From positions 128,001-192,000 of the forward strand of contig CBEUCH010000005.1 in the NCBI GenBank assembly GCA_965541585.1: a DNA stretch of 64,000 bases, given 5' to 3'. Made by a program: the position numbers and the translations under genes. This DNA is from an uncultured bacterium (GTDB lineage: Bacteria; Zixibacteria; MSB-5A5; UBA10806). The first letter of the stretch is position 1, and each line of letters starts with the position of its first letter. This document shows, one piece after another, positions 10,792-28,451 of the stretch. The notes under the pieces are model-generated. The model saw only the letters and a program-made list of their open reading frames with translations. It had not been told where the DNA came from and ran no database searches.

Positions 10792-10819
10792 AAAATAACA
10801 TCGGGCGGAATTTTGTCAA
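10792..10819 (-). promoter_or_regulatory. Sigma70 promoter of uvrC, leaderless geometry
   Basis: TTGACA-16-(TG.)TATTTT-6 nt-GTG start, no SD. Confidence 0.6.
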
Positions 10820-10837: not shown

Positions 10838-10948
10838 CTATCGGATGGGGATTAAGACGATTGCGAGAGCAGCAAAGACAGCCAGGACGATCAACCCCAA
10901 CTCGAGATTATCGAGGATTCTCTTTTTCTCTTCTTTCATTACAATCAT
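10838..10948 (-). CDS. Small single-TM membrane peptide (36 aa), unannotated
   Basis: MIVMKEEKKRILDNLELGLIVLAVFAALAIVLIPIR*. GGGAG SD 7 nt before ATG; charged N-terminus followed by a hydrophobic helix. Confidence 0.6.
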   Translation of the reverse strand: MIVMKEEKKRILDNLELGLIVLAVFAALAIVLIPIR

Positions 10949-10955
10949 TTTCGGT

Positions 10956-11044
10956 CTCCCAGAAAATTTTCATGGGAGTGGCGGAGGGGGAAACCCCGAA
11001 TCGTTCGGGGTGGCTGGATGGTGGTCCAGCACACCACTCCCATG
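10956..11044 (-). ncRNA. Candidate cis-regulatory structured RNA (three-way junction plus alternative SD-sequestering hairpin)
   Basis: 11-bp outer stem 10971-10981/11034-11044, inner hairpins ACCCCGAA/TTCGGGGT and GCTGGA/TCCAGC, and alternative pairing CTCCCA/TGGGAG covering the SD. Confidence 0.5.
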
Positions 11045-11083
11045 TCTTTCAGAACCACATTTGTGCCTTCGCTCTTAAAAAAG

Positions 11084-11098
11084 GCAAGATCAATGCCA
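11084..11098 (-). promoter_or_regulatory. Putative sigma54 (-24/-12) promoter
   Basis: Minus strand TGGCATTGATCTTGC = GG-N10-GC with TGGCA and TTGC boxes. Confidence 0.55.
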
Positions 11099-11281
11099 GA
11101 ATCCCGATTTTGATCCGCAAGGAACGGGCAGTCGAAACTGCACCTTTAATTTATTGCCATACAATAAGTTAAGCAGAGAAATGCGGCTATTGCTCGAAGA
11201 TTTCATTTTCCCTATTCATAGTGAATCTCGTACAGATTGTCGCAGATTTATGAATCTCTGCAAAAAATTGCAGGATCGCAC

Positions 11282-27744: not shown

Positions 27745-28451
27745 AGATCCCCGAGATGGTTGAGAACCAGAGTGGGGAATAAGACGCCGGCCGTCTCCGC
27801 GCGCAAACGGCGAGGCCCAAGCCTTACCGGCGAGAATCCAGCATCGATCACCGAAGATACCTCATCATCCGTAAAACCGCTTTCCGGTCCAACCAATAGC
27901 AACAATCTTTTAAGATCGTGAGATTTTCTAACCGCCTGTTCCATGGTTTTGGAAGATCTGTTCGAAATCGCTATAAGCGAGAGATCGAAATCGCCTTTAA
28001 TACCCAGGGTTTCGGCGAATGTTTTGAATTGCATAACCGACGGTATTACCGATCTTTTCGATTGCTTGGCGGCGGCCCTGACGATTTTTTTGAGGCGCGA
28101 GATTCTCCTCACAGACGATGAATCCCCCTTCATCTTTAAGTAGCTCTTTTCAGAATAATAGAATATGAACGATGCCACCCCGATTTCGGTGCCTTTCTCG
28201 ACTATGAAATCCATCCTGGACGGGCGGCAGATCCCCATGGCCAGAGTGATATTGTGAAACGGTTCGTTTTCCAGGCGAGTCACGTTCGAGATCAAACCCT
28301 TGACAGTGGAGCCGGAAACGGATTCGATAACAACTCGATATTTCAACCCGCTGCCGTCGATTGCATAAAACGAATCCCCGATCTTGGCACGCAATACCTT
28401 TTTCAAATGGTGGGCCTCGGTGCCGGCTAATACCAGCCGCTCATCGTTCAC
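27741..28451 (-). CDS. rsmE: 16S rRNA m3U1498 methyltransferase RsmE
   Basis: EAHHLKKVLR, IVEKGTEIG, AAKQS.R, VGPESGF, LGPRRLRAETA. Start uncertain (see findings). Confidence 0.93.
   Translation of the reverse strand: MNDERLVLAGTEAHHLKKVLRAKIGDSFYAIDGSGLKYRVVIESVSGSTVKGLISNVTRLENEPFHNITLAMGICRPSRMDFIVEKGTEIGVASFIFYYSEKSYLKMKGDSSSVRRISRLKKIVRAAAKQSKRSVIPSVMQFKTFAETLGIKGDFDLSLIAISNRSSKTMEQAVRKSHDLKRLLLLVGPESGFTDDEVSSVIDAGFSPVRLGPRRLRAETAGVLFPTLVLNHLGDL

Follow-up and report, generated by a model that had tools for sequence, protein, structure and literature searches.

Several described bacterial small RNAs (sRNAs) resemble the RNA reported here, each in the features that portions of the cited papers describe. 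The 6C RNA of Actinobacteria carries unpaired C-rich stretches, is conserved phylum-wide in hosts without Hfq and pairs with G-rich ribosome-binding sites through C-rich loops without a chaperone (PMC6486639). The Qrr sRNAs of Vibrio (RF00378; about 100 nt) have sigma-54 promoters with an activator (PMC3730234), and Pxr of myxobacteria is a sigma-54 sRNA with strong sequence conservation, adjoining two-component genes and occasional paralogs (PMC5684412, PMC5568312). GlmY and GlmZ are expressed from sigma-54 promoters, with a switch to sigma-70 in a sub-lineage, and the downstream kinase gene has its own promoter (PMC4152352). CJnc230/FlmE of Campylobacter is an RpoN-dependent sRNA with a single-stranded anti-Shine-Dalgarno (anti-SD) motif between stems (PMC11187230).

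The RNA that we describe, encoded on the minus strand of the window (i.e., the whole stretch of 64,000 nucleotides that was analysed), departs from each of them in other respects. The C-runs of 6C RNA, in the portion of the source cited, lie in hairpin loops (PMC6486639), whereas the C-rich stretch here is a junction strand beside an invariant closing helix. This RNA also has a sigma-54 promoter, and neither the two hairpin loops of six C nor the Rfam match that mark a 6C RNA was found (no match to 6C at E values up to 10). When seven other motif loci were compared with Rfam 15, the best match was Qrr, at 31.7 bits against a 50-bit cut-off (family f11, L241:1541-1653; in the majority variant, agreeing with the Qrr seed at 12/13 letters). 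This score comes partly from the terminator, the phylum lacks Hfq, and the Qrr model gave no match in the source genome; the RNA thus has neither the Rfam score nor the Hfq-containing host of a Qrr. Because the letters concerned are paired here and are lost in the window's order and in f13 (three families), we take the likeness to the Qrr seed as chance. Two more weak Qrr-like matches were seen in genome G032 (contig C60, near 27773-28083).

Pxr consists of three separate stem-loops in the portions of the sources cited (PMC5684412, PMC5568312), unlike the closed junction here, which has no Rfam match and is adjoined by kinases in only three families. GlmY and GlmZ differ in that RapZ was found in 0/5 genomes tested, Hfq in none of 151 genomes and an Rfam match not at all. 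CJnc230/FlmE is processed from the flgE mRNA (PMC11187230, in the portion cited), while the RNA here is preceded by a promoter of its own and does not track flagellin (found in 3/5 genomes). On this comparison, the RNA appears to be regulated like Qrr, Pxr and GlmY and is proposed to work like 6C RNA, but neither its Rfam scores nor its host factors place it with any of them.

Locus and predicted fold

Positions 11044-10971 of the minus strand, flanked on one side by a zinc carboxypeptidase gene and on the other by a 36-codon open reading frame (ORF) followed by uvrC, fold into a predicted three-way junction (i.e., the closing helix P1, two hairpins and an unpaired pyrimidine strand) with the following parts.

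11032..11044, minus strand: P1 closing helix, 5' strand; pairs with 10983-10971
11013..11030, minus strand: P2 hairpin, structural and variable; all 5 modelled pairs change on both sides
10993..11011, minus strand: P3 hairpin, structural and variable; 98.5% of cells paired
10984..10992, minus strand: unpaired C-rich junction strand, anti-SD-like, proposed pairing seed; unpaired probability 1.0
10971..10983, minus strand: P1 closing helix, 3' strand, containing a second CCNCUCC unit; its tandem arrangement with the exposed unit is read from sequence

The full fold has a minimum free energy of -49.8 kcal/mol (z = -3.84), and none of 200 shuffled sequences was equally stable. An earlier note on this DNA had drawn the same junction. 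Every sequence element of its two inner hairpins and unpaired pyrimidine tract was found at the claimed minus-strand position, and its outer stem exists as well, although with 13 pairs (including one G-U) rather than the 11 that it had given. It had not recognised the element as a known Rfam class, and this was borne out by Rfam 15, which gave no match at the gathering threshold over the whole window and just two chance matches (E = 5 to 10) around the element. Literature searches on Zixibacteria gave no regulatory RNA, although supplements of motif-discovery papers could list the motif.

Covariation and conserved core

The covariation check that the earlier note had proposed was run on homologues, and all three helices covaried. 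Among 94 distinct model-aligned rows, 96% of the cells pair and two-sided changes occur at 14 of the 23 pairs. The observed covariation score was reached in none of 500 shuffles; this alignment leans towards the model, and a plain MAFFT alignment gave 91% paired cells and 11 two-sided pairs. RNAalifold, applied to 22 picked rows without a supplied structure, returned the same fold.

The helices change in different ways. Two inner pairs of P1 covary (11 and 6 of the 94 rows changed on both sides), while the remaining eight show no two-sided change and keep their sequence. P2 is paired in 94.5% of cells. P3 shows a C-G/U-G exchange in 41 rows, in which the U-G pairs fix the strand, and a shift of register from lineage to lineage accounts for part of its two-sided change. 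All 94 distinct rows share the same unpaired CCCCUC, an invariance that, like that of P1, is partly built in, because the search patterns and models were made from those letters. In family f13, which was found only by the covariance model, a single hairpin replaces both P2 and P3. Since this family swaps both hairpins yet keeps P1 and CCCCUC, we regard P1 and the open C-rich strand as the core and the hairpins as scaffold. The three-way junction is a real, phylum-wide conserved structured RNA that is undescribed in Rfam.

Distribution and copy number

A covariance model built from 71 sequences found the RNA in 128 of the 151 genomes of the phylum and in 15 of its 19 families; in the others (f3, f10, f14 and f17), it was found by neither the covariance model, a looser pattern nor a second model (best E = 0.08 to 0.9). 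The occurrence of a near-invariant RNA in about 85% of the sampled genomes suggests a core regulatory circuit in this uncultured phylum. The source genome has a single copy, as do 121 of the 128 carrier genomes, with two to three copies in the remaining seven. On this copy number we rejected a MITE or REP repeat, which the earlier note had named as an outcome that would overturn its candidate. Some second copies (L251:1423-1485, L233, L253 and L365) have an additional long hairpin, with a C-rich loop, that ends in a U-run; L233 has a tandem of two such units (after 1520 and after 2261) close to a tRNA.

A BLAST comparison with 41 related genomes placed the core both in and away from the uvrC context. 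A pattern scan of genome contigs gave at least 120 loci; among the 80 matches listed, most record titles named Zixibacteria, and the others named Ignavibacteria, Bacteroidetes, Terriglobales, Calditrichaeota or only a bacterium. Because four loci without a Zixibacteria title (L075, L076, L101 and L143) share their downstream kinase with loci so titled, we claim no range outside the phylum. At least 120 further matches came from metagenome contigs and none from viral contigs.

Promoter and upstream site

Upstream of the junction, the predicted transcription unit comprises three features.

11045..11072, minus strand: 5' leader of the predicted RNA, variable; sequence not conserved across families
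11084..11098, minus strand: sigma-54-type promoter (-24/-12) of the pattern GG(C/T)A-N6-TTGC; predicted start near 11072
11259..11272, no strand assigned: palindrome TGCA-N6-TGCA, a conserved upstream motif and likely sigma-54 activator site (putative enhancer)

The promoter and start follow the sigma-54 -24/-12 consensus and its 12-nt offset to the transcription start. The motif precedes 129 of 141 distinct genome loci (0 to 2 in four control windows) and 94 of 107 metagenome loci (control, 0; four of 111 loci were dropped for short flanks), at a spacing from promoter to helix that varies from 28 to 65 nt, and rpoN was found in 151/151 genomes. Among the 165 loci with enough flank, the palindrome was exact in 38 and had one mismatch in 82, compared with 0 and 4 of 157 in control windows, and it lies mostly 130-165 nt upstream of the promoter. 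The source genome gave 16 strong matches to sigma-54 activators. At the motif level, the RNA has both the promoter of its own and the activator site expected of a sigma-54-dependent trans-acting sRNA. In one lineage (L254 and six similar loci), the motif stands between a sigma-70 promoter and a terminator, and no ORF intervenes.

A scan of the source genome for a palindrome regulon found one other promoter (crude ORF calls masked that of the RNA itself). This sigma-54 promoter, at G000:C5:125308 with an exact TGCA-N6-TGCA upstream, precedes the gene for a 160-residue membrane protein and may share its activator with the RNA.

3' end and neighbouring genes

Downstream of the junction, four features were located.

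10963..10966, minus strand: short U-run after P1; weak here, with read-through into the small ORF likely
10956..10961, minus strand: Shine-Dalgarno sequence (SD) of the small ORF; varies among relatives
10838..10948, minus strand: predicted gene for a 36-residue protein with a single membrane span; restricted to the window's order
10792..10819, minus strand: sigma-70-like promoter of uvrC, lying after the small ORF; 10/12 consensus matches

Of the eight positions after P1, at least six were U at 9 of 24 loci in the window's order and at 87 of 117 loci elsewhere. Among 36 loci picked across families, 12 had a separate terminator hairpin within 70 nt and 13 faced a convergent ORF, which Pfam supported in nine. 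Outside the window's order, the RNA is predicted to have the 3' end of its own that a trans-acting sRNA should have (i.e., a U-run or terminator, with changing neighbours), while at this locus that end is weak.

At 89 of 107 loci the next ORF shares the strand of the RNA; 73 of these 89 belong to two inherited contexts. The genes that follow the RNA differ by lineage (the small ORF, kinases, YdjC, convergent MutS2, SpoIIE, a peptidase and others), with YdjC the same-strand neighbour in f5 and f19. Strong matches to two sensor kinases adjoin the RNA in f9, f13 and f16 only, and a general linkage to kinases was rejected on this ground. A promoter-like GCCGATA element, a sigma-28-like motif, lies 30-70 nt downstream of the motif in 96 of 264 loci (control, 2). 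In L191, L262, L263 and L266, a conserved GCCGATA stands before a HAMP/PAS histidine kinase pair (families f9, f13 and f16).

The small ORF has 33-36 codons in 23 loci of the order (L018 was dropped for masked bases), and its third codon positions differ by 0.69/0.67 while its second positions differ by 0.25/0.19; judging from this pattern, it looks like a genuine coding gene. Its protein, which across the order ends near a conserved proline, had no significant Pfam match (best E = 0.015), and its neighbours in the Atlas all fell below 0.9. The ORF follows the RNA only in f1 and f2, being absent in 13 of the 15 carrier families, and the two remain together when relocated from uvrC. Because the U-run is weaker in the window's order, the small ORF is probably transcribed there from the same promoter as the RNA. 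A link between the RNA and uvrC was rejected, since uvrC is served by a promoter of its own and the RNA is found away from it in G014, G018, G019, G020, G022 and more distant genomes; most relatives in the order show a TTGAC element ahead of uvrC, including ones whose RNA lies at another place. The uvrC match of L013 (G011:C89:447-2261) contains one internal TGA.

Proposed function

On balance, we lean towards a free-standing sRNA that is induced through sigma-54, acts independently of Hfq and pairs with ribosome-binding sites rich in G. The gene product would be a regulatory RNA of about 100 nt. The conserved motifs suggest that a sigma-54 activator at the upstream palindrome turns it on, and, in the fold supported by covariation, the closing helix and the two variable hairpins would keep the C-rich strand open. 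This strand would most likely pair with the G-rich ribosome-binding sites of other mRNAs and block their translation without Hfq. The 3' strand carries a tandem pair of CCNCUCC units, of which the first is open and the second, also anti-SD-like, lies within P1; pairing may extend into this second unit through strand displacement. In most lineages the RNA is predicted to end at the U-run or a separate terminator, while in the window's order the weaker termination and the small membrane protein on the same transcript would make it a dual-function RNA.

No hfq gene was found in the 151 genomes of the phylum, which matches the chaperone-free G-C pairing of 6C RNA as given in a portion of PMC6486639. 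The extra hairpin with a C-rich loop in some second copies was also counted in favour of pairing by the C-rich strand. The proposal joins sigma-54 control to Hfq-free C-rich pairing and has testable parts (i.e., the activator site, the promoter, the 6-nt seed and a natural minimal variant).

A more ambitious form of this proposal, which we offer tentatively and think unlikely to hold as a whole, is a phylum-wide translation throttle. An anti-SD toehold would be exposed, with a further anti-SD unit kept shut inside the closing helix; the RNA would open by strand displacement on G-rich leaders or dock on a protein, ribosomal or otherwise, and in this way a sigma-54 signal would retune a class of ribosome-binding sites without Hfq, and in one order it would also be the leader of a small membrane protein.

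A search for SD sites with the pattern over 61 genomes gave scattered matches, and no conserved mRNA target was found, one candidate site having been compared across orthologous loci. The best site in the source genome, before nuoD, is a 13-nt perfect complement to the phylum-majority seed that occurs in the source genome only (1/30 orthologous loci), and nuoD was rejected as a target. A tandem array of genes for paralogous secreted proteins at G000:C16:46048-57100 shares a G-run ribosome-binding site, and these genes are possible seed targets.

Alternative roles

The failure to find a conserved target would also fit the main rival to mRNA pairing, a free-standing sigma-54 RNA that binds a protein, as decoy or scaffold, through the invariant P1 and the C-rich bulge, in the way that GlmY sequesters RapZ. 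We consider this role possible, if rather unlikely. The eight sequence-invariant inner pairs of P1 suit recognition by a protein, and the RNA lies beside two sensor kinases in three families, like glmY beside glrK (PMC4152352, in the portion cited). The invariant unpaired letters, however, are complementary to SD sequences, and the candidate partners fit poorly: RapZ is missing from the genomes tested (see above), Ro60/TROVE was not found in the source genome (0/1), CsrA occurs in 5/5 genomes but the RNA has no GGA loops, and none of the four protein families tried tracks the presence of the RNA.

We regard as improbable a cis-acting leader or attenuator, in which P1 and the U-run would terminate transcription unless a protein or ligand permits read-through into the kinases, YdjC or the small ORF. 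Such a role would account for the many same-strand ORFs and for the U-run immediately 3' of P1 in most loci. The downstream genes, however, are unrelated between lineages and convergent in the 13 picked loci counted above, the GCCGATA element provides a separate promoter-like sequence in many loci, and no conserved antiterminator fold was seen.

The earlier note had read the locus as a riboswitch-like translational switch, in which the junction alternates with a hairpin that sequesters the SD of the small ORF, or as a switch coupled to an upstream ORF (uORF); we consider either very improbable. The hairpin (10978-10956) can indeed be drawn, with -9.7 kcal/mol when folded alone, and several close relatives show it in their best P1-less fold; the joint relocation of the RNA and the small ORF away from uvrC would also suit such a switch. 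In the full transcript, however, its pair probability is about 0 and forcing it costs 7.9-8.8 kcal/mol, so that the alternative state lies 8-9 kcal/mol uphill and the junction forms without need of a ligand. P1 has a pair probability of at least 0.999 in 24/24 loci of the window's order, across which the best P1-less fold is 4.5-20.3 kcal/mol worse. The drawn pairing is to be expected, because any SD complements CUCC, and it is not conserved: one relative (L012) has no SD-like sequence at the position. A pseudoknot between the C-rich strand and the SD of the small ORF (-7.6 kcal/mol) was rejected, being no better than the pairing with 46% of 2831 crudely called genes.

The 32-codon uORF (11043-10945) also exists, but only 13 of the 24 loci in the order keep its start. 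The frame is there 4-68 codons long without a common stop, and at three to four loci it is fused to the small ORF; outside the order the start occurs at 11 of 117 loci. On energetics and conservation, both forms of the switch were rejected. The small ORF itself is missing from most carrier families. Neither a conserved alternative fold that hides a downstream SD nor a set of same-strand downstream genes of one pathway was found, the neighbours being mixed and in part convergent, and one would not expect an aptamer pocket to withstand the replacement of both inner hairpins in f13. The RNA is very probably not a riboswitch, and a false candidate of that class is thereby removed.

Other assignments were rejected: a Y RNA (no TROVE match in the source genome), a stand-in for signal recognition particle (SRP) RNA (a normal SRP RNA is present elsewhere in the genome), 6S RNA (which is longer than the RNA here, and whose model gave no match at E values up to 1 in the source genome, 98% complete) and a tRNA-like CCA end, the letters of which vary along with their P1 partner.
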